Virus record (IMG/VR): IMGVR_UViG_3300026430_000265 | Span: 2,771-66,770 of that record | Direction: 5' to 3' (one strand) | DNA: 64,000 nucleotides | Source: a virus | Shown: piece after piece, positions 6 through 10,532 of the stretch | Position numbering within the stretch: position 1 is the stretch's first letter | Layout: every line of letters begins with the position of its first letter | Notes under the pieces: generated by a model | The model's database searches: none | What the model saw: only the letters and a program-made list of their open reading frames with translations | Told to the model about the DNA's origin: nothing | Translations under genes and position numbers: made by a program

Positions 6-1454
6 GTGCCTGCTGACTGGGTACTCGTTCGTGGTTATGACGAATGCCCACGTTGGGCGCCACCCAAGTCGTCTGGTGGGATCAATAGCACGCTGTACCG
101 TGCGCCTTCCAAGCTGGTAATGAGCACTATCAACTACACAGGCGATGGTACCGAGGCACGCTATGCCCTTGGCGATCTGGAAATCGAGAACGTCAACTAC
201 CTGCAGCCAGCGCTTGGTGGTGTAACCCAGCACCGTGATGCGTTTGATATGAGCGGCAACGAGATTGAGTTTGTGGAGGCAATTGCCGCCCAGATTCCAA
301 TTGACCTGCGCCTGTTCACACGTATCCCGTCGAACGGCAGCCGCATGTTGATCAAGGTTGACCATGTGGTGGGTGATGGCAGCACGCAGAACTTCAAGAT
401 CAGCCAGCCCGTGCAAGACGCCAACTACATCAAGGCGTACATTCGCGGTATCCGGCAGATGCTCACCACGTTCACCTACGATGCCACAACGCAGGAGGTC
501 AAGTTTGTAGCACCGATCCCTGCTGGCGTTGACGTGGAGTTGCGTAGCTTCCGTATCGAAGACTTCGAGGGTTACAGCACCACCATCTCGACCATCGCCA
601 CGATCACCAGTGACGACACGTACTTCCTCGAACTGCCGTTCACTCCGCAGTCGGTTGAGTACATCGAGGTATCCCAGTCTGGTGCGCACATCCATGGCAA
701 CCAGTACACTCTGGTAGACAACAAGGTGATCTTCACTGGGCCGATTCGCAAAGGCCTGGGTGTCGAGATTACCCTGTACGACAACGCGCCAGCACAAGGC
801 AGTAGCAATACCAACCTTGCTGGTGTGGTCATTGATGCAGTGCTTACTGGTCGTACCTTGAAGCTCCTGCGTCATGGTGCCAAGCCGATTGTCCTGCCTG
901 TGCCTGGCGTATCGCTGATCGCTGGCTCGGGTATCCGTATCAGTGGTTCGCACCCTGTGTACCGGATCGAATCGACCATCAGTGAGCAACTGACTGATGC
1001 CGAGGCCAACTTCAAGTTCACGGATACTCGGAACCAGAAGGACGCCCAAGAGATTCTGTTCACGCACCGTGTCAATCTCTCCAGTGACGTGATGGTGACT
1101 GTCCACGCTGACTTCCAAGCAGCACTCGGCCCTGGCTTCGTCACGGAAGAAGGCTTGGAGATCATGGAGTACGTGGTTGGCTTCCGTTCGTCCAAGAGTC
1201 AGGAGCCTGATTACGGTCGCCAGATTGCAGGTACTGGTACTGCTGGCTTCTCGTCCCTTGGTGGCGACAAGAACGAACGTGCCTACTCCAACGCCTCGCT
1301 CACTCAGGTCTACGATATTGTGACCAAGAACCACCCAGCGGGCTACATCGACGTTGTGGTGAAGATGCGGGTGAAGAACGCGAACGTGAGCCAGTACGGT
1401 TCGTTCCTGAACGTCAACGTCAACATCATCGGTACGCCGAAGATTGCCAAATAG
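6..1454 (+). CDS. Virion structural protein (baseplate/fibre-associated); probably 5'-truncated by the window edge
   Basis: 482-aa ORF from GTG at base 6 with no room for an RBS; repeated GDG-T-x-F/Y beta-rich modules typical of phage baseplate/fibre proteins; first gene of the structural block. Confidence 0.6.
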   Translation: MPADWVLVRGYDECPRWAPPKSSGGINSTLYRAPSKLVMSTINYTGDGTEARYALGDLEIENVNYLQPALGGVTQHRDAFDMSGNEIEFVEAIAAQIPIDLRLFTRIPSNGSRMLIKVDHVVGDGSTQNFKISQPVQDANYIKAYIRGIRQMLTTFTYDATTQEVKFVAPIPAGVDVELRSFRIEDFEGYSTTISTIATITSDDTYFLELPFTPQSVEYIEVSQSGAHIHGNQYTLVDNKVIFTGPIRKGLGVEITLYDNAPAQGSSNTNLAGVVIDAVLTGRTLKLLRHGAKPIVLPVPGVSLIAGSGIRISGSHPVYRIESTISEQLTDAEANFKFTDTRNQKDAQEILFTHRVNLSSDVMVTVHADFQAALGPGFVTEEGLEIMEYVVGFRSSKSQEPDYGRQIAGTGTAGFSSLGGDKNERAYSNASLTQVYDIVTKNHPAGYIDVVVKMRVKNANVSQYGSFLNVNVNIIGTPKIAK

Positions 1455-1461
1455 GTGAGCC

Positions 1462-1923
1462 ATGATCTGCTACGTCATGCCCGATGGGAGTTATGGACGC
1501 AGCACACAGCCGCCACACGACGCCATTCCCATTGGTGACGACATATACAGGATGCTGGAGGACAACCCTGGCATGCTGGACATTGAAGTCACCGGTGTGA
1601 ATGTTCGGATCAGCCCATCGCTTATTTCCTACAAGGCAAAGGCGCTGGAGATTATCCGTACCGAAGTGGGCAAGCTGCTGCCGTCTGAGCAGCATCTGAA
1701 CCAACTGCACCGCAGCGTTGCTTGCGAGCAGTCCTGTTTCGATGAGGTCCTTGGCTGGTTAACGGTTGAGGACACGCGCAAGACGTTTGCGCAGCTTAAC
1801 GAACGGCACAACAAGCTGCGATTCATTCAACACGACAGCACCTCCATGGTGGGGCAAGCAACAGCCTGTGAACAGGTTGATACCATACTGGAGGCATTGT
1901 CGCATACACTAGGTGCACTATGA
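1462..1923 (+). CDS. Hypothetical protein, possible tail-fibre assembly chaperone
   Basis: 153 aa; AGGTGAG RBS; short beta N-terminus then helical C-terminus as in fibre-assembly chaperones; ATGA overlap with the next gene. Confidence 0.5.
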   Translation: MICYVMPDGSYGRSTQPPHDAIPIGDDIYRMLEDNPGMLDIEVTGVNVRISPSLISYKAKALEIIRTEVGKLLPSEQHLNQLHRSVACEQSCFDEVLGWLTVEDTRKTFAQLNERHNKLRFIQHDSTSMVGQATACEQVDTILEALSHTLGAL

Positions 1924-3329
1924 GTGTGAAAGGTGTTTCCGACTCTCCACTCCTTGGGAAGTCTATCCTAGGAGACCAATCCCGGGTGCCCATCGGTGCG
2001 CCTGTGATTACAAACCTCAGGGTGAAGAACTCGAAAGAGATTCAGGCCCTGATGACTGGCCAGACATTGACTGAGCCACAACTCAACCAGTTCGAGACGT
2101 TTGGGCAGGATGGCAGGGAAGCCTTCCGCAAAGAGTCCAACAGCATCGACTACCGTGATCGCACGCTGGAGAACGGGCGCCTTATCGAGGAGTGGAGCTA
2201 CGACCCACAAACGGGTTCGCTTGTCCTCGTGCGGAAGAACCAAGAAGAGTACCGCATCTTCAACTTCCTGCGCCAAGACGCGATGGGTCATGGTGCTACA
2301 GGTCCTCGTGGCGATCCGGGTAAAGATGGGAAGAACGGACGTCTCGGTCGTGATGGTGCTCAAGGTGCTACCGGTTGCGAAGGTGAGAAGGGTGATCCGG
2401 GTGAGACTGGTAACCCAGGCGTCGAAGGTAATCCCGGCATCATGGGCTTGCAAGGTCCAGACGGTTGTGAGGGTGCATCGGGCGATCGTGGTGTCGTGGG
2501 TCCACAGGGACGTAACGGGTTTGAAGGCGCTCGTGGCCTCACTGGACCAAGTTGCGATGAAGAGAACACTGGCGCTCAAGGTGCACAAGGTGCCAAGTTC
2601 GGTAAGGGTGTTGCCTTTGGCCTAGCCGCTGCCTCTGATCCAGAAGTCGCAATCATGGGCTTGGACGATGACGGTGTTGATGCAGTTGCGCCAACGTGTG
2701 GCTGGACTGGTAAGCTGTGCGGTGCAACTACTGCGCCAGCAACGCCTGCTCCTGATACATCAGCGCCAGCTAACCCATCGCCTCCACCTACTGCATCTGC
2801 GCGCATCAGCCTGTGTACGAGCTTTGGTAACCAGAGTCCGAAGAGTTCGTGTGGTGGTACCTCGACTGCGTGGTATGTTGCATGGGCCAACTTCGATGCA
2901 GGTGGCGGTGTACTGGGTCTCTCGGGACTTCCACTCGCACGGCAAAACACTGCATGGTGGCCAAACAGTGTCGTCATGTGTGGTACTCTGGCCGCTGGTG
3001 CAGCGTACACCTTCGAGTTGATTACTCCACCGGGCGTTGCCTCCACCTTGTTCCTGAACTGTGCGATCATCAGCCAGACGGACTACCCAGGTGGTACCAC
3101 GCGAGTCACGAAGACACTGGACAAACCCACTGAGGTTCGCCTGCGCTTCCTCAACAACGCAGCGCGCATCCCAACGTGGTGTGCCCTGAAAATCTACAAC
3201 GCCTCCACAGGCGAACTGCTGTACTTCACGGGTAAGAATGCCAAGAACGCCGGCCTCAAAGGTGAGTTTGCCTCATCCAAGACTGACGACAACTGGGCAG
3301 GCAACAGCTCCGTGCAGCAGTACCTATAA
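1920..3329 (+). CDS. Collagen-like fibre protein A with Cys-rich C-terminal beta domain
   Basis: 29 uninterrupted G-X-Y triplets (GATGPRGDP...GLTGPS), Pro/Ala linker, beta-rich C-terminal domain. Confidence 0.8.
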   Translation: MSVKGVSDSPLLGKSILGDQSRVPIGAPVITNLRVKNSKEIQALMTGQTLTEPQLNQFETFGQDGREAFRKESNSIDYRDRTLENGRLIEEWSYDPQTGSLVLVRKNQEEYRIFNFLRQDAMGHGATGPRGDPGKDGKNGRLGRDGAQGATGCEGEKGDPGETGNPGVEGNPGIMGLQGPDGCEGASGDRGVVGPQGRNGFEGARGLTGPSCDEENTGAQGAQGAKFGKGVAFGLAAASDPEVAIMGLDDDGVDAVAPTCGWTGKLCGATTAPATPAPDTSAPANPSPPPTASARISLCTSFGNQSPKSSCGGTSTAWYVAWANFDAGGGVLGLSGLPLARQNTAWWPNSVVMCGTLAAGAAYTFELITPPGVASTLFLNCAIISQTDYPGGTTRVTKTLDKPTEVRLRFLNNAARIPTWCALKIYNASTGELLYFTGKNAKNAGLKGEFASSKTDDNWAGNSSVQQYL

Positions 3330-3338
3330 GGATTCAAC

Positions 3339-4034
3339 ATGACAGGCTTGACTCGAATCCACAGTTCGTTGATCTATGCCCCGGGTGAATCAGACCAGAC
3401 CGAAGTAGTGGTCAGGGACGAACACCTTGAGGCCAGTGCGCCGCTTGAGTCGGATATCAGTGAAGTCTCCAGCGGCTACTACGATGCCCAGCTGGGTATC
3501 CTGACGCTCACCATGAGCAACGGTGATACCGTTCGTATCAATGGCTTTGCCACAGCGGGTAACATCCCTGCTGGTCCCACAGGCCCTCAGGGTTTGCCGG
3601 GTAAAGATGGCCAAGACGGCCGTGATGGTAAGGACGGTGAGAAAGGCGAAGAGGGTTGCCAAGGTCCAGCGGGGCCACAAGGCGCCACTGGTGCTACCGG
3701 CCCTGATGGTCGCGATGGCATGATGGGTCAGCAAGGCGTTCGTGGTTGCCCAGGTCCCAAGGGTGCACCGGGTGAACGCGGACCCACTGGCCCGCAAGGT
3801 CCAATCGGCCCCACTGGTCCAAGAGGTGAGCAAGGTCCTACGGGTAAGCCGGGTGCTCCTGGCCCTGCAGGTACCGTGAATATCATCGTCTCCACTACTG
3901 ACCCTGGTAACGTGGGTGCTGGCTGGCTCTGGGTTAACCCAAGCGCCACTGAAACTCCTGCATCGGGTGGCGGCGGTGGCGGCACTGTAACGCCTCCTGC
4001 GACTGACCCACCCATCGGCACTCCATGGCCATAA
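3339..4034 (+). CDS. Collagen-like fibre protein B
   Basis: About 34 G-X-Y triplets; shared YD-x3-G-x-L-x-L..I-x-GF pre-collagen motif; C-terminal IIVSTTDP...WLWVNP motif. Confidence 0.85.
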
Positions 4035-4046
4035 CAAGGTGACCTT

Positions 4047-4562
4047 ATGCTGACTCGCGTTCCACTCAAATTGCTCGATGCCAAAGGTCGCTCTGGTAGT
4101 GACGTGCGCTTCGATGGTAACAACGTCGTGGTGGAAGAGGATAGCCTCAACCAGAACGACTACGGCATCACGGCTGGTAACTACGACGCCACCTCTGGTA
4201 CCCTGACGCTCGTCCTGCGCAATGGTGAAAGCCTCCAGCTCTCTGGGTTCACCACTGTCAGCGACATGGGCGTTGGCCAAGCAGGCCCCACTGGCCCAGC
4301 AGGTCAAGATGGCCGTGATGGTCTCAATGGTACTGACGGTGAGAAGGGTGCCACTGGTTGCCAAGGCCCAGCTGGCCCTCCCGGTCGTCAAGGCCCTCGC
4401 GGCGAACAAGGCAACCCAGGGGCTACAGGCCCTAACGGTGCAACTGGACCCACTGGCCCTGATGGCAAGGATGGCGTCGTTCAAATCTGGATTCAGACCG
4501 CTGACCCAGTGCTGGATGCTGCCGTCCACGTTGTCCCTGGGGCACTGTGGGTCAAGCCATAA
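4047..4562 (+). CDS. Collagen-like fibre protein C
   Basis: About 23 G-X-Y triplets; same pre-collagen motif; ends IWIQTADP...ALWVKP. Confidence 0.85.
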
Positions 4563-4577
4563 GTTGGAGTTCTACCA

Positions 4578-7500
4578 ATGAGTAGACTAAGAATCAGGAA
4601 TGCGGCCAACACCAAGTGGTTGGATATCTGCCAGAGTGAATGGCGGGTGCGCAATCCAAGCAACACAGGCTGGACACGCATCACTCCTGCGCAGGGCATG
4701 AAGGTTCGCCATGGTGCTGAGACCTATTGGCTGGACATTGATTGCAAGGCGGAAGGCCTAGCCAGTTGTGACACTGAGGATGAGTACGGCGGCACACCGG
4801 ACGGTAAGGGTAGCAATGGTTCAGGTGGTGGTAACGGCTCCGGCGGTGGAACAGGTGGCAACGGAGGCAACGGAGGGGCGGGCGGTAACGGCACGGACCC
4901 TGGGTCTGGGTCGGGCGGAATAGGAGGCGGTTTGAACGGTCCTGGCAGCCCTTGGTACAATAATGGGGATAAAGGATCCGGCCAAGGCGGCTCTGGATGG
5001 CAGGAAGGAGCACCATATCCAGGTGGCTATGATCTGCCAGATAGCGATGGGGATGGAGCGGGCGACAAGGGCTCGTGTATCTACCGTCCCGGACTGGGTG
5101 TCTGTGAGGAGAAGGGTGTCCTCATTATCCGTCCGGACATGGACTGCGGTACGAAGATCGCCGGTGGGTTTGATTGCCCATTCGAGTGCCCAAGTGCTAT
5201 CAATGGTAGCGGTAAGGGTATCTGGGAGTTCTACCTGAACATGGGCAAGGAAGGCGGTGCGGTGCGTATGCCATGGATGGCGAACGCTGGTGCTGTTAGT
5301 GTCGATGTGTACTACCGCGGCAAGGTCATTGCGAGCACTGGTGGGCAGCGTACTGGCAAAGGCGTATTGCAGTTCGTGTTCACGCCGGTGAATAACGACC
5401 CACTGGTGTTTGTCCGGGTTAGGGCTACTAAGGCCAGCAAGTGGACGCTCCAGATGAAGTGCGTGGGTGACGACGATACGGACGGTGAAATCACTGATCC
5501 ACGTCCATGCCACGGTACGTTCGAGGTGAAGAAAGAAGGCGGGTTGGGAACGTTTGAGTTCTATCACGCCATGGGTGATAAGGCTGGCTTGGTAGACATA
5601 CACTACCAGATGTGGAACCAGCCGGATAAGCTCGAAGTATTCCAAGACGGACGGTTGCTCAAGTCTACTGGCGGATACGTGGCAGGCGAAGGCCATGTGA
5701 AGTTTGACTATTCGCCTACCGAGTCGCAGCTTGTCATGGTGCGCATCACTGCACGGGACCCTGGGACCTCGTGGATTTACCTGATCACCTGTCCGGGCGA
5801 GAAGGGTAGTGAAGATGATCCACGGCCGTGTTCGGATCAGAGCGCCGTGACGTCTGGTGGTGCTGGTGTTACTGACACCTATGTCGATATGGGTCCGAAT
5901 GCTGGTAAGGTGGGTGTGCGTTACCAGATGTACAACATCCCCGATAAGCTGGACGTCTATCAAGGCGGTACGTTGGTTGCGACGACTGGTGGGCCTGTTA
6001 CTGGCGATCACTGGCTGTACTTCAACTACAACCCCGCTGGTGGTCAGAAGATCCAGATTCGGGTAACTGGCAGCGGTAAGACCTCGTGGTCGTTCCTGCA
6101 TACGTGCCCGGGTGATGAGGATCCAAACATCAGCATCGACGATCCGATTGTCAAGGAAGGCAAGGAGGGTGAGACTGCCCAACTCTGCTGGACCGTGACT
6201 ATGGATAAGCCGCAGTCCATGCCTGTGACTGTCGATTACCAATCTGGTGGCGGTACTGCTAAGCCCTTCATCTGCCAAGGCCGGATTTTGGCGAACGACG
6301 AGTTCAACAACCCCTTTATCGCAGTCGCGGACTGTGGCGTTGGTCGTGCAGCATTCGATGGCGGGTTCCCCAAGTTCTACAACAATGCCTACAGGGCGCC
6401 GCAGGATGCACCTACTGGTCAGGCCGTATTCGACTCGTGGTGGCGGACGGCAGGCGACGAGTATTACTCGGACCCTACCACAATCCCTGCTGCATCGCAA
6501 GCTACTGCATGGCGGTTGTCGAGCGGGAACATCCAGTCGACCACGAACAGTTCCAAGATGATTTCGTTCTGTTCGCCGCTGTCGTACATGAGCTACACGT
6601 TTGAGGCCACGCTGTCGTCTGGCGAGGCGGATGACGATATGATCGGCTTGGTAGCTGCGTTCGCCCGTGTTGGTGCTGACAACTACCATCTGGTTGCATC
6701 GCGTGTACCCGGTGGCATGGGAGGTTATGGTAGTGGTAACTTCAATCTGACGCTGCTTGTCAACGGTGTACCTACTAAGGTGCTCGCGACGAAGACTTCT
6801 GGCGGCAACGGGAACTGGAATGGTCGTGGGCAGACCCGTGTGCGGGTTGAGCGTGACTGCAACATCATCACGATCTACTGCTCACCCTTTGGTTCGGTTG
6901 CACTGGACTCTGGCACCAAGATCGAAGTGGACCTGAGTGCAGATGCTGACCTGAGCGCATTCACAGGCCAGACCAGCTGGGGCTTCTGTGCCCAGTCGCA
7001 AGCAAACGCCACGTTCAGCTCCGTGTTCGTGTCCGGCATTGGTCTGCCACCTGCATTCACCTACCTGAAGAACTTGATCCAGTGGACTGCGCGCACCAAC
7101 AATCGCACAGGCAAGGTGTTGATTACCTGCGACAACGCGACTGGTGGGAACTACACGCTCGACAGTCAGCCCAACGGGTTCGGTATCAGCTTGCCGGGTA
7201 CTGTCACGGCTGCTGGCTTCACGCCTGTGATGAAAGACGTGTACGCGTGGAACTCTGTGGGTGCTATCCCACTGGCTGAGCTCCTGACGTATGACACCAT
7301 CATCTTCATGGGTTCGCGGGTGACGGCAACTGGTGTAGCGGCTGAAGGTATCCTGAAGGAGGGTTCGGTAGCCAACTTCGCCGAGTACGCTAAGCGCGGT
7401 GGTGGCCTTGTTGTCATCACTGACCACTACGTCTTCGAGTCTGGTGCCAACCAGTTGGCTAACCTGTTCGGGATGGAGTTCTACGGCTCAGTGGATCGTA

Positions 7501-8228
7501 GTGCTATCAGCGTAGCTGCCATGATTACTGCGTGGGGCGATCACCAAGCGTGGGATGGTCTGCACTGCGAGAAGATTCCTGCAGGCGGTAGTGAAGGTGC
7601 ACTGCGCATCAAGGTTGAGGAGCGTGACTATCAGCCAACATCGGGTACCGTGACGTTCGCACCGGGTGAGACTTCCAAGCAGGTCTGTGTCCCAGTCTTC
7701 GGTAACGACGTGCAGCAACCTGATCGCACCGTGGGCATGACCATCGGCAATGCGTCGAAGGGTAACATCACCAAGTCTGGTGGCTTCGGCACGATCATGG
7801 ATGACGACAGCGCGATCTGCAACCAGAACCCAAGCGAGCAAGTGTTCGAGCGCGCTGGTGGTCCTGATGGCTGCAATCTCCTGCACGTGCAGCCAAACTT
7901 CGATTGCGCTGCTGGCAACGTCATGTACCTGATGCAAGCCTTCATCCCGTTCACGTACAGCGGCTCGCACGTTATCACCGTTATCTCGGACGATGACTAT
8001 GAGTTGTACATTGACTGTAAGAAGGTGGGCTCTGGTCCAATTGGCGTGGCAACACTCACTGTGGATGTACGCGCGGGGACTCGCAACGTGATCCTGCGAT
8101 ACAAGAACATCCCGAACTGTACGCCTGGCTATGCTGGATTCAGCGTGCGCTACAACAACCAAGTCCAGTACCTGACCAAAGCAGCAGATTGGAAAGGTCA
8201 AGCCAACAGCATTGGGGAGATCGGATAA
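4578..8228 (+). CDS. Large multi-domain virion adhesin/fibre: triple W-repeat N-terminus, Gly-rich linker, three tandem beta-sandwich repeats, split Calx-beta with nested inserts, PA14-like C-terminal domain
   Basis: 1216 aa; three ~100-aa repeats (PDKL-x-V-Y/F-Q-x-G...STGG); Calx-beta halves ISIDDPIVKEG..VTVDYQSGGGTA and DYQPTSGTVTFAPGETSKQV..GTIMDDD; C-terminal SDDDYELYIDC. Confidence 0.75.
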   Translation: MSRLRIRNAANTKWLDICQSEWRVRNPSNTGWTRITPAQGMKVRHGAETYWLDIDCKAEGLASCDTEDEYGGTPDGKGSNGSGGGNGSGGGTGGNGGNGGAGGNGTDPGSGSGGIGGGLNGPGSPWYNNGDKGSGQGGSGWQEGAPYPGGYDLPDSDGDGAGDKGSCIYRPGLGVCEEKGVLIIRPDMDCGTKIAGGFDCPFECPSAINGSGKGIWEFYLNMGKEGGAVRMPWMANAGAVSVDVYYRGKVIASTGGQRTGKGVLQFVFTPVNNDPLVFVRVRATKASKWTLQMKCVGDDDTDGEITDPRPCHGTFEVKKEGGLGTFEFYHAMGDKAGLVDIHYQMWNQPDKLEVFQDGRLLKSTGGYVAGEGHVKFDYSPTESQLVMVRITARDPGTSWIYLITCPGEKGSEDDPRPCSDQSAVTSGGAGVTDTYVDMGPNAGKVGVRYQMYNIPDKLDVYQGGTLVATTGGPVTGDHWLYFNYNPAGGQKIQIRVTGSGKTSWSFLHTCPGDEDPNISIDDPIVKEGKEGETAQLCWTVTMDKPQSMPVTVDYQSGGGTAKPFICQGRILANDEFNNPFIAVADCGVGRAAFDGGFPKFYNNAYRAPQDAPTGQAVFDSWWRTAGDEYYSDPTTIPAASQATAWRLSSGNIQSTTNSSKMISFCSPLSYMSYTFEATLSSGEADDDMIGLVAAFARVGADNYHLVASRVPGGMGGYGSGNFNLTLLVNGVPTKVLATKTSGGNGNWNGRGQTRVRVERDCNIITIYCSPFGSVALDSGTKIEVDLSADADLSAFTGQTSWGFCAQSQANATFSSVFVSGIGLPPAFTYLKNLIQWTARTNNRTGKVLITCDNATGGNYTLDSQPNGFGISLPGTVTAAGFTPVMKDVYAWNSVGAIPLAELLTYDTIIFMGSRVTATGVAAEGILKEGSVANFAEYAKRGGGLVVITDHYVFESGANQLANLFGMEFYGSVDRSAISVAAMITAWGDHQAWDGLHCEKIPAGGSEGALRIKVEERDYQPTSGTVTFAPGETSKQVCVPVFGNDVQQPDRTVGMTIGNASKGNITKSGGFGTIMDDDSAICNQNPSEQVFERAGGPDGCNLLHVQPNFDCAAGNVMYLMQAFIPFTYSGSHVITVISDDDYELYIDCKKVGSGPIGVATLTVDVRAGTRNVILRYKNIPNCTPGYAGFSVRYNNQVQYLTKAADWKGQANSIGEIG

Positions 8229-8398
8229 TGGCAGTCAGACTCCGTGTTCGACAGTCCGTTAGCGACCCGTGGATTCAAAACTTTGACAAGCTGGGTTGGA
8301 AAGTCAGGGCGAGCGACAACAAGTCGTGGATTCAGATGAACCCGCTCAACACCAAGGTGCGCTCCTCGGACAACACCAAATGGCTCAACGTGAAGTGA
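8228..8398 (+). CDS. 56-aa protein homologous to the N-terminal module of the 1216-aa adhesin
   Basis: TAATG overlap with the upstream stop; three (L/W/T)(R/K)VR-x5-6-W repeats matching those at 4578-4750. Confidence 0.75.
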   Translation: MAVRLRVRQSVSDPWIQNFDKLGWKVRASDNKSWIQMNPLNTKVRSSDNTKWLNVK

Positions 8399-8405
8399 GA
8401 AGACT

Positions 8406-9215
8406 ATGACTGGTAGACTGACCAGGGTGCCATTGCCGCTGCTCGATCCGGGCACGGGTGATACCAACGACATTGTGAAGTTCAACGGCAATGAGCTGGA
8501 GCTTCAGGATGACGAGAATCTGAACGGTGATACCACAATCGTCTCCGGTGATTATGACTCGGAGACGGGCTCACTCGTTCTCAACCGCGCGGATCGCAGT
8601 ACGCTGCTGATCCGTGGCTTCCTTACAACGCAGTCGGTGGGAGTGGGGCCTACGGGTCCCACTGGCCCTCAAGGCAAACCCGGCTCGAACGGTCGTAACG
8701 GTAAAGACGGCCGTGTCGGCGATCAGGGTTGCGTTGGCCCCAAAGGTGATCCGGGTCCTCAGGGTGCAACCGGTCCTGCAGGTTCGAGTGGTGGTCCCGG
8801 TGTTCAGGGCGCTACTGGCCCGACGGGTCCCACCGGTCCGACTGGCCCAGCAGGGCAAGATGGTAAGACGCCAACGTTCGGCGTGGGTGAAGTCGATGCC
8901 TACGAGCGATTCGACAACCTCAGCTTGAAGTGCTGGGGCCGCTTCACGTCGACCGAGGCTGCGCTTTTCCAGCGCGTGATCTTCCCAGAGTCGTTCATCA
9001 CCGACAAGCCTCGGACAATGCACATCCAGTTCATTAACCCGAAGAGCAACGTCAAGAACGCTGTGCGGATTGATCGGGTGAACAAGGGTAACGCAGAGCT
9101 TTCCGTGGACACCTCGCTGCTTGCACAAGAGAGCGATGGTGCTGGCGGGACTCAACCTGTGGCTGCCACCGGCTGGGACTTCTACTACTTCGTCATTGGC
9201 AGCGACGCTCCTTAA
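8406..9215 (+). CDS. Collagen-like fibre protein D with C-terminal globular tip domain
   Basis: About 25 G-X-Y triplets; N-terminus LTRVPLPLLD resembles gene 4047 ([10 protein letters not shown]); C-terminal CWGRF..IFPESF..FYYFVIG resembles fibre tip domains. Confidence 0.8.
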   Translation: MTGRLTRVPLPLLDPGTGDTNDIVKFNGNELELQDDENLNGDTTIVSGDYDSETGSLVLNRADRSTLLIRGFLTTQSVGVGPTGPTGPQGKPGSNGRNGKDGRVGDQGCVGPKGDPGPQGATGPAGSSGGPGVQGATGPTGPTGPTGPAGQDGKTPTFGVGEVDAYERFDNLSLKCWGRFTSTEAALFQRVIFPESFITDKPRTMHIQFINPKSNVKNAVRIDRVNKGNAELSVDTSLLAQESDGAGGTQPVAATGWDFYYFVIGSDAP

Positions 9216-9673: not shown

Positions 9674-9704
9674 TTTAGACGCAGTGTAAATCGAGGTGAA
9701 TCCC

Positions 9705-10532
9705 ATGGTCCTGCCGATTGCAAGACTCATTCAGGCAGCGCAAGTCCGAGGCCTGACTGACTCTAATCCCGTGCTGCTTACCACAGACGGGCCAAGCAAA
9801 ACCCGCATCAACATCATCGTGAGCAAGGTGGAGCCGATTGAAGTCGTGGCTCCACTGGACCTCATCTGGATCGACCCGAGTACGTCAACGGCACTGCGCC
9901 GTGTCAACCGCGGTGCGAGTGCAAACCACACGCATACGTGGACTGCGGCAACGGAGTCCAACTTCTGGAACGCGCAGATGTGGGACGAGCCTCGTCCTAG
10001 CGATCAGGACTTCCAAGAACTGAATCGCAACATCGGCAACACGCACGACTTGACGGCATTCGACCTGGGTGCATTCGATGCAACTGGCGGCCGCTTCACT
10101 GGGCCTGTGTACCCACGCACTCTTGGAACAAGCGAGGACTACGCGGCTGATGAAGCCGTGCCTCGTTCGTTCGTTGAGAAGCTGACGTCCGCTGCTCAGT
10201 CGCTCGCAGCATCCGTGTACCAACAGCTTACCAGTGTGCGCAACTCGGTGCGTGCCCTGGGTACCCGTACAACTACCGTTGAGAACAAGGTGAAAGCCCT
10301 TGAGCTTGGCGGCGGTGACGGTGTTCCAAAGTTTCTGCACACGCAGGAAGATGAGGACCTGGAGTGGCTGATCGCTCACGACCTAGGTACTGAGAACCTC
10401 ATCATCGCAGTCGCGTTGCCCAACGGGGATTACATGATTCCCGCTGAGCAAATCCCTCTGGACGGCAACAATGTCCGCATCACATTCGCCGCTCCACGCT
10501 CCGGCACTGCGGCGATCATTGGCATAAGGTAA
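9705..10532 (+). CDS. Virion structural protein with coiled coil and C-terminal W-x-I-x-H-x-L module
   Basis: GAGGT RBS 7 nt before ATG 9705 (alternative GTG 9696); GGRFTGPV fibre motif, heptad segment, terminal EWLIAHDLG..NNVRITFAAPRSGTA module. Confidence 0.65.
   Translation: MVLPIARLIQAAQVRGLTDSNPVLLTTDGPSKTRINIIVSKVEPIEVVAPLDLIWIDPSTSTALRRVNRGASANHTHTWTAATESNFWNAQMWDEPRPSDQDFQELNRNIGNTHDLTAFDLGAFDATGGRFTGPVYPRTLGTSEDYAADEAVPRSFVEKLTSAAQSLAASVYQQLTSVRNSVRALGTRTTTVENKVKALELGGGDGVPKFLHTQEDEDLEWLIAHDLGTENLIIAVALPNGDYMIPAEQIPLDGNNVRITFAAPRSGTAAIIGIR

Follow-up and report, generated by a model that had tools for sequence, protein, structure and literature searches.

Why should four neighbouring phage genes each encode a collagen-like fibre with a Cys at exactly the same height of its triple helix, and do the four chains share one helix or build separate fibres? 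We addressed this question for a 64,000-nucleotide stretch of viral DNA (the window; positions 2,771 to 66,770 of IMG/VR record IMGVR_UViG_3300026430_000265), the source record of which spans 137.7 kb and is estimated to be 52% complete. Judged by its gene order, the window is a fragment of a jumbo phage that is syntenic with Pseudomonas phage PaBG. The four genes, denoted here by their first nucleotide, all lie on the plus strand (1920-3329, 3339-4034, 4047-4562, and 8406-9215). An earlier note on this DNA had proposed that their products co-assemble as heterotrimers or as a bundled fibre that is covalently locked after release. The reading that we prefer, and to which we give about an even chance, is that each gene yields its own homotrimeric fibre with a collagen stalk, four in all, in the baseplate region of a PaBG-like jumbo myophage, with exposed thiols that would be oxidised after lysis.

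All four products follow a common plan that comprises an N-domain of ~80 amino acids (aa), 8 linker residues, a tract of Gly-X-Y triplets, and a Cys at the X position of triplet 10 (Cys10). The Pfam Collagen family (PF01391; cut-off 27.2 bits) matched genes 1920, 3339, 4047, and 8406 with scores of 53, 64.4, 38.7, and 44.2 bits, and the tracts comprise 29, 34, 23, and 25 perfect, uninterrupted triplets, respectively. The Phe that closes the N-domain motif is located 8 residues before the first triplet, and Cys10 is Phe+37 in all four genes (e.g., F116/C153 in gene 1920 and F72/C109 in gene 8406). The Cys10 codons (2376, 3657, 4359, and 8730) are all TGC. Genes 1920 and 3339 encode a second Cys at triplet 20 (Cys20; TGT at 2466 and TGC at 3747) and have similar triplets 17-18 (GIM GLQ and GMM GQQ, respectively). 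The earlier note had described the coordinates, tract lengths, triplet numbers, Cys codons, and spacings correctly, save for one spacer in the N-domain motif to which it assigned seven residues; the x7 pattern gave no match, and the motif reads YD-x3-G-x-L-x-L-x9-[IL]-x-[GN]F.

The Cys residues stand alone, one or two to a tract, at a conserved position in helices that are otherwise free of Cys. Cys10 is the only Cys in the entire gene 4047 product, and the two in-helix Cys are the sole Cys of the whole gene 3339 product. The C-terminal region of gene 1920 opens with a further Cys (2553-2555) directly after triplet 29, such that the Cys of this rod recur about every 10 triplets (10, 20, and roughly 30). 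In gene 8406, Cys10 is located within the conserved stretch G-R-N-G-K-D-G-x-x-G-x-x-G-C-x-G-P-K-G-D.

Four paralogs in one window are alike by common descent, and the meaningful test of the Cys register is therefore its conservation across homologs. A tblastn search with gene 8406 identified PaBG (Baikalvirus, 258 kb; 76% identity) along with two more remote matches, Lu11 and HRDY3; no phage record was matched when the region was compared by megablast. Our family sample comprised 116 non-identical homologs, drawn from about 25 genomes and contigs of PaBG/Lu11-like phages, and pooled the N-domain-bearing proteins of a database search with all paralogs from fetched loci (referred to below by L numbers). 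Constancy of the Phe-to-Cys spacing in homologs from related phages had been set beforehand as the test that could overturn the earlier proposal. The register withstood this test: Cys was present at the X position of triplet 10 (10X), with the same spacing, in 113 of the 116 proteins, and the entropy of this column (0.21 bits) was the lowest of all non-Gly columns, N-domain included. The next best-conserved positions were Asp at 7Y (106/116) and Pro at 11X (100/116), which form a patch with conserved Arg/Asn at triplet 6. Within the first 23 triplets, the sole other position with Cys was 20X. All four PaBG orthologs showed the same Cys pattern, as did Lu11 and HRDY3 with respect to triplet 10 (three paralogs each, all with Cys10).

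A search of 5.8 billion proteins yielded 69 N-domain-bearing proteins, 67 of which had Cys10 (one by way of a single Gly-to-Ala interruption). When the whole library was searched with a profile of the N-domain plus 15 triplets, generic long collagens dominated the output and only P0167, P0055, and P0026 were true members; narrower alignments used in the searches for related loci added few new lineages. Among 99 unrelated viral collagen tracts that were fetched in passing, 89 were without Cys and the Cys-rich ones were of giant-virus type; no such Cys occurred in collagen proteins from outside this phage group whose tract follows a similar beta-hairpin. Cys accounts for 1.0-1.3% of residues in window proteins. 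On the evidence of these alignments, the Cys register is not due to chance.

Across the family, Cys10 is encoded by TGT in 29 cases and by TGC in 25, and the window paralogs are 55-66% identical in DNA around the Cys10 stretch with no long exact runs. A constraint at the level of DNA on the Cys codon was rejected with both codons in use, as was gene conversion as the source of the shared Cys. The use of both codons in divergent DNA therefore indicates that selection acts on the amino acid and does not point to recent gene conversion. Since the spacing is fixed in nearly all homologs, selection would be on the thiol itself, which, as read from the alignments, is under strong purifying selection at a fixed height. 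A disulfide would be the simplest use of such a thiol.

The heterotrimer half of the earlier proposal, in which chains of different genes would enter one triple helix like the A, B, and C chains of C1q, draws on the adjacency of paralogs with an identical register from the N-domain to triplet 10 and on the precedent of C1q, which is built in this way. However, the tracts are unequal in length, and each class keeps its own length: all 4047-class orthologs found have 23 triplets, 8406-class tracts have 24-25 (rarely 26), those of the 3339 class 34 (rarely 33), and those of the 1920 class between 28 and 34. In Lu11-type phages, the fourth position is occupied by a 675-aa protein with 48-49 triplets. 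Tract lengths that are unequal yet conserved per class are therefore a poor fit to one shared helix. The C-terminal parts (26, 51, 114, and 258 aa) are likewise non-homologous, being unrelated between classes except for a short cap motif, and the number of paralogs per genome varies from three to six (three classes in Lu11-type phages, six members in L017). Moreover, Cys10 has been lost independently in single paralogs. In L009, 10X is Ala in the 8406-class protein but still Cys in that of the 4047 class; the 4047-class proteins of L012 and L109 are without Cys10, which is retained in their 1920 and 3339 classes and, for L109, also in the 8406 class; and the 1920-class protein of L020 has Cys at triplet 29 only.

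The cap motif, [VI]-x-[IV]-x-x-[QS]-[ST]-x-D-P-G ... G-x-L-W-[VI]-x-P, closes the helix in 4047, 3339, and short 1920-class proteins, the last with such tails in L019, L020, and L021. The six members at L017:1-10807 (the same phage as L024) include two long proteins (598 and 914 aa), each with a 33-triplet stalk and a large head, and the family, as far as these loci indicate, expands by adding heads to the same N-module.

The 8406 head also argues against mixed helices, as it is a homotrimer-type fibre foot. A monomer model of the 8406 product had a mean predicted local distance difference test (pLDDT) score of 82, with blocks of 96-98 in the head (residues about 161-260) and 75-93 in the N-domain (about 11-70). 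The top five Foldseek matches of the head in the PDB (6ct8, 6cl5, 6cxb, 6cl6, and 4mtm; probability 1.00, E = 1.7e-3 to 6.7e-3) were R1/R2 pyocin fibre feet and phage AP22 gp53, all from the ends of homotrimeric fibres, over 115-120 aligned columns, which identifies the same fold. Ortholog P0016 matched PF21882 (Gp53-like_C) at 27.6 bits (cut-off 24.9), and several other orthologs carry a precomputed match to this family; the window's own 8406 head did not match it at E<=1, and a PDB sequence search with 8406 returned generic collagen only. Two family members end in Peptidase_S74 (PF13884), which is a C-terminal intramolecular chaperone of homotrimeric fibres.

An ESMFold2 homotrimer of residues 1-125 of the 8406 product reached an interaction prediction score from aligned errors (ipSAE) of 0.55 versus 0.00 for the best control, a mark that was reached in calibration by 20 of 30 one-chain-pair structures and 1 of 23 single-chain structures. 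At least 94% of contacts were shared among runs, and partner pLDDT was at least 79. Contacts between copies were predicted within the N-domain (24-24, 69-48, 57-69, and 50-71) and along helix residues 77-125 of all copies, where the pass may owe to solved triple helices that the model has learned. The model supports a trimeric N-domain that is in register with the helix. Collectively, several lines of evidence favour separate homotrimers, including this homotrimer model, which passed its controls, and the heterotrimer option of the earlier note did not hold up; we regard it as very improbable.

In the architecture that we propose for the four separate homotrimers, the beta-rich N-domain would set chain register and most likely dock the fibre on the baseplate. 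A triple-helical stalk of class-fixed length would follow, at about 20 nm (4047), 21 nm (8406), 25 nm (1920), or 29 nm (3339), as computed at 0.286 nm per residue. Cys10 would be situated about 8 nm above the N-domain and Cys20 of the 1920 and 3339 fibres about 8.6 nm further, with the third Cys of the 1920 fibre at its helix end. The 8406 stalk would end in a pyocin/AP22-type receptor-binding foot, the 1920 stalk in a Cys-containing head, and the 3339 and 4047 stalks in a short cap. The five Cys of the gene 1920 C-terminal region (including that at 2553-2555) are invariant in four orthologs; a fold model of this head built from 4 sequences was too poor for a structure search (mean pLDDT 48.7), and a PDB sequence search with it returned no match. 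The gene 3339 cap motif is kept in 12 genomes. Because the gene 4047 product consists of only the N-domain, 23 triplets, and a cap, this class is without a receptor-binding head; by its predicted domain content it is a 'headless' fibre, and it may serve as a strut or as a stalk on which another protein docks.

The in-helix Cys would present solvent-exposed thiols that are kept reduced during cytoplasmic assembly and then oxidised after lysis. Three thiols per level cannot all pair in one trimer, and therefore one interchain disulfide would likely form within the trimer, as in the Arg-to-Cys variants of COL1A1, leaving the third thiol free or bridging to a neighbouring stalk or baseplate protein, as in collagen VI. 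Among these variants, R312C corresponds by our own count to helix residue 134, presumably at an X position. R312C results in disulfide-bonded alpha1(I) dimers in one helix (PMC8872221), and the Y-position substitution R780C likewise forms an interchain disulfide, normal fibrillar triple helices being without Cys (PMC6039012). In collagen VI, a single in-helix Cys per chain cross-links dimers and tetramers, with the alpha3 Cys situated 30 residues into the helix (PMC12354898). Cys10 is most likely, to judge from its conservation, a disulfide staple that is formed after the virus leaves the cell. A thioredoxin gene was not found in the record, PaBG, or Lu11, and a search of the same three for Erv1/ALR found none, but no control genome gave a match either and absence of Erv1/ALR is thus not shown. 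Oxidation would therefore be spontaneous, after lysis.

Some of the same observations would also fit a conserved Cys that, instead of being a disulfide partner, forms a metal bridge, is covalently modified, or remains a free thiol in contact with a baseplate socket or adaptor around the first ~12 triplets. The conserved patch around Cys10 resembles a protein-binding site, virions are assembled in the reducing cytoplasm, no thioredoxin was found in the three sequences searched, and the Erv1/ALR search was empty but uninformative. In addition, the ~770-aa baseplate neighbour encoded upstream of the cluster has one Cys (alignment column 129) that is kept in all four full-length orthologs compared (L019:1627-3951, L020:5196-7514, L109:997-3312, and L111:651-2963). 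This Cys, in a single alignment column, is a candidate partner for the fibre thiols. However, exceptions at 10X carry Ala or Glu and not the Ser, Thr, or Val that a packing role might predict (only two or three cases), and Cys20 and the helix-end Cys of gene 1920, at their spacing of about 10 triplets, are outside any plausible socket. Nor was a modifying enzyme recognised nearby in Pfam and PHROG searches, with the Cys of the adjacent 153-aa gene unconserved. We consider a role other than disulfide formation to be rather unlikely.

Several points weigh against homotrimers that are stapled by disulfides. A disulfide between two X residues within one helix is strained, given a rough C-beta distance of about 8-9 A, and with X side chains directed outward this geometry slightly tips the balance toward a partner outside the trimer. 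Some lineages do without Cys10: Ala takes its place in one 8406-class protein and Glu in 4047-class proteins, and one 1920-class protein has no Cys there. That the homotrimer model passed is compatible with heteromers too, the homotrimer being the only combination that was modelled. In type I collagen, the R780C disulfide is slightly destabilising (PMC6039012). Finally, the PaBG virion proteome consists of 14 gel bands, and the collagen proteins are not among them.

The outward partner could be a fibre of the same kind, one of another kind, or a baseplate protein; for fibres of another kind, Cys20 provides information. Nine lineages (the window, PaBG, L016, L111, L018, L021, L012/L109, L027, and L118) have it in the 1920 class as well as the 3339 class, and five (L019, L020, the L023 group, L017, and L069) have it in neither class. 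In a tree built from joined 3339- and 4047-class sequences in which the trait column was masked, at least two Cys20 changes are required, both of them concordant between classes; since these amount to only 1-2 independent contrasts, a sign test has no statistical power. Gene conversion was rejected as the source of the co-occurrence, as the X/Y identity between classes over triplets 11-22 was 0.19 within genomes versus 0.17 between genomes. Orthologs of the 1920 class share only 14% X/Y identity over the same triplets, yet the Cys is kept.

These data bear on the second option of the earlier proposal, a registered bundle, in which the different homotrimeric stalks would rise next to each other from the baseplate, have their N-domains at one level, and be cross-linked through Cys at the same height; the 1920 and 3339 stalks would then be joined by two rungs, at triplets 10 and 20. 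All classes have the same Phe-to-Cys distance, one of the three thiols at each level cannot pair within its own trimer, X is the more exposed position of the helix, and staggered stalk lengths would stop the heads from clashing. The concordance of Cys20 across 14 lineages, with at least two concordant changes and without a contribution from gene conversion, is one modest piece of support for such disulfide-bundled fibres, as far as sequence comparison can provide it. However, the independent contrasts are few, and lineage-wide selection for more staples would yield the same Cys20 pattern. Cys10 is gone from one class while others keep it in L009, L012, and L109, and the number of classes differs among phages (three in Lu11-type phages, six in L017). 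A possible exception to the concordance is L102, where a 1920-like gene with two Cys 10 triplets apart stands beside a mosaic 3339-like gene without Cys20, on a 1.1-kb contig that looks chimeric and the start of which resembles an assembly artefact. We regard the registered bundle as possible but doubtful. In its fullest form, which we put forward tentatively, disulfides formed after release into an oxidising medium would join level homotrimeric stalks at heights of about 8 and about 17 nm, giving a multi-fibre assembly with covalent rungs in which the 1920 and 3339 fibres are a co-evolving two-rung pair. If true, phages would have a counterpart of the supramolecular cross-linking known from collagen VI or C1q, as well as a redox switch by which the adsorption apparatus becomes stiff only outside the cell.

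The mosaic gene itself (L102:93-1126) has a 3339-class N-domain and first ~12 triplets of the L018/L021 type, followed by unrelated distal collagen and another kind of C-terminal region, an arrangement suggestive of recombination shortly after the Cys10 module.

The preferred reading places the four homotrimers in the baseplate region, and gene neighbourhoods agree with this location. PaBG gp243-gp236 are collinear with the window, and gp241, gp240, gp239, and gp236 are annotated as 'tail fiber'; the order in PaBG is a ~770-aa protein, a ~160-aa protein, gp241, gp240, gp239, proteins of 1217 and 56 aa, and then gp236, with the tail sheath gene further downstream of the collagen cluster. In the more distant relative L020, PAAR and gp25-like baseplate genes directly precede the cluster. 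The synteny with the PaBG tail-fibre block and these L020 neighbours locate the cluster in a tail/baseplate module. All four genes match the PHROG tail-fibre family phrog_8745 (E = 1e-52, 7e-36, 1e-28, and 9e-28), and the matches begin at residues 1-4 of each protein and so take in the pre-collagen domain. PaBG virions have 'small appendages' at the tail end, and the virion proteome includes an 83.5-kDa 'base plate wedge subunit' band which, by its size, probably corresponds to the ~770-aa (772-aa) upstream neighbour. Coordinates of the collagen gene domains and neighbouring genes are listed in the table.

Table. Positions of collagen fibre domains and adjacent genes within the window.
Feature	Coordinates	Strand	Description
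~770-aa upstream protein (partial)	6..1454		
153-aa gene	1462..1923	+	Overlaps the start of gene 1920 by 4 nucleotides; 149-198-aa gene at the same place in relatives
Gene 1920 N-terminal extension and shared N-domain (residues 1-124)	1920..2291	+	Ends in YD..G.L.L-x9-I.NF and the 8-residue linker
Gene 1920 collagen tract	2292..2552	+	29 triplets, ~25 nm; Cys at triplet 10 (2376-2378) and triplet 20 (2466-2468)
Gene 1920 C-terminal region, 258 aa	2553..3329	+	Cys, Pro/Ala-rich linker, Cys-containing beta-rich head
Gene 3339 N-domain (residues 1-78)	3339..3572	+	
Gene 3339 collagen tract	3573..3878	+	34 triplets, ~29 nm; Cys at triplet 10 (3657-3659) and triplet 20 (3747-3749)
Gene 3339 C-terminal cap	3879..4034	+	L-W-V-N-P, Gly/Pro/Thr linker, terminal PPIGTPWP; without globular head
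Gene 4047 N-domain (residues 1-76)	4047..4274	+	
Gene 4047 collagen tract	4275..4481	+	23 triplets, ~20 nm; Cys at triplet 10 (4359-4361)
Gene 4047 C-terminal cap, 26 aa	4482..4562	+	..Q-I-W-I-Q-T-x-D-P...G-A-L-W-V-K-P
1216-aa adhesin-like protein	4578..8228	+	Cys-rich, weak Calx-beta match; not a member of the collagen family
Small open reading frame before gene 8406	8189..8398	+	55-58-aa gene at the same place in related phages
Gene 8406 N-domain (residues 1-80)	8406..8645	+	Modelled as beta-rich and trimer-packing
Gene 8406 collagen tract	8646..8870	+	25 triplets, ~21 nm; Cys at triplet 10 (8730-8732)
Gene 8406 C-terminal head, 114 aa	8871..9215	+	Beta-sandwich like the R-type pyocin fibre foot and phage AP22 gp53
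HNH-annotated gene	9696..10532		Just downstream of the cluster

The 153-aa gene had no Pfam or PHROG match. It was evaluated as a fibre-specific thiol oxidase or oxidoreductase and rejected; its four Cys vary among eight orthologs, and it is therefore not a dedicated thiol oxidoreductase. The 1216-aa protein, the gene for which sits between the third and fourth collagen genes in most relatives, contains 28 Cys (2.3% of residues, versus about 1% elsewhere in the phage). Because this protein is rich in Cys and the 1920 head also contains Cys, gene content suggests that the distal adsorption proteins of the phage rely on extracellular disulfides in general. The 55-58-aa gene is always directly 5' of the 8406-class gene in relatives, and its product could be an adaptor or assembly factor for the 8406 fibre.

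At L018:4233-5084, the 3339-class and 4047-class genes are separated by an inserted HNH endonuclease gene, and PaBG, like the window, has an HNH-annotated gene just downstream of the cluster. On the related contig L112, the 8406-class fibre is the only collagen fibre encoded; the genes ahead of its large adhesin are non-collagen and include one for a 377-aa product with a Pfam ADPrib_exo_Tox match (L112:1312-2445).

Collagen-like phage fibres are common, but a near-invariant in-helix Cys at one fixed height has not been described before, and the paper on PaBG, a phage that can be propagated on a laboratory strain (PAO1), makes no mention of collagen or of these Cys. If the thiols form disulfides, they would provide a simple extracellular 'lock' for a phage adsorption organelle and a natural case of registered covalent stapling of a bacterial-type collagen, of interest for recombinant collagen engineering. 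If they are not disulfide partners, the patch G-R-N-G-K-D-G..G..G-C-x-G-P would still mark a defined protein-binding site on a prokaryotic collagen helix.

Several known systems share parts of this arrangement. C1q, collectins, and adiponectin have collagen stalks with globular heads and Cys that link chains and set the oligomer state, and the chains of C1q are encoded by adjacent paralogous genes. However, their Cys are located in a short N-terminal non-collagen segment, whereas those of the phage are inside the helix, and C1q has helices of equal length and homologous gC1q heads, whereas the phage tracts comprise 29, 34, 23, and 25 triplets and the heads are non-homologous. Pfam and PDB searches with the phage fibre heads returned no match to C1q, and the organisation is not of the C1q type. 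In COL1A1 R312C and R780C, Cys at the same non-Gly position in two chains form an interchain disulfide (PMC8872221, PMC6039012), although these variants are pathological and slightly destabilise the helix, whereas the phage Cys appear to be a selected feature. R-type pyocin fibres and AP22 gp53 share the beta-sandwich 'foot' fold of the 8406 head, with orthologs matching PF21882, but have beta-helical shafts and a sequence identity of 8-18%.

The EPclA-D side-tail fibres of Escherichia coli O157:H7 prophages (PMC3368898) are, like the fibres proposed here, phage-encoded homotrimers with a bacterial-type collagen stalk that is without hydroxyproline and is positioned between N-terminal attachment and C-terminal capping/trimerisation domains. 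They differ in that the EPcl collagen domains are without Cys, their PfN, PCoil, and PfC flanks are unrelated, and they do not comprise three to six co-resident paralogs that share one N-domain, nor is tract length fixed by class. Collagen VI (PMC12354898) has one Cys in an otherwise Cys-free helix at nearly the same distance (residue 30 in alpha3, residue 29 of the phage tract), and its in-helix Cys disulfide-bond other molecules and lock the supramolecular assembly, for which the phage disulfides would be a hypothetical parallel. However, collagen VI, which has von Willebrand A domains, is a heterotrimer of animals and is made in an oxidising secretory pathway, and the sequence similarity is limited to Gly-X-Y. 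Collectively, these comparisons indicate that the closest described proteins are EPclA-D and that the closest mechanism is that of collagen VI.

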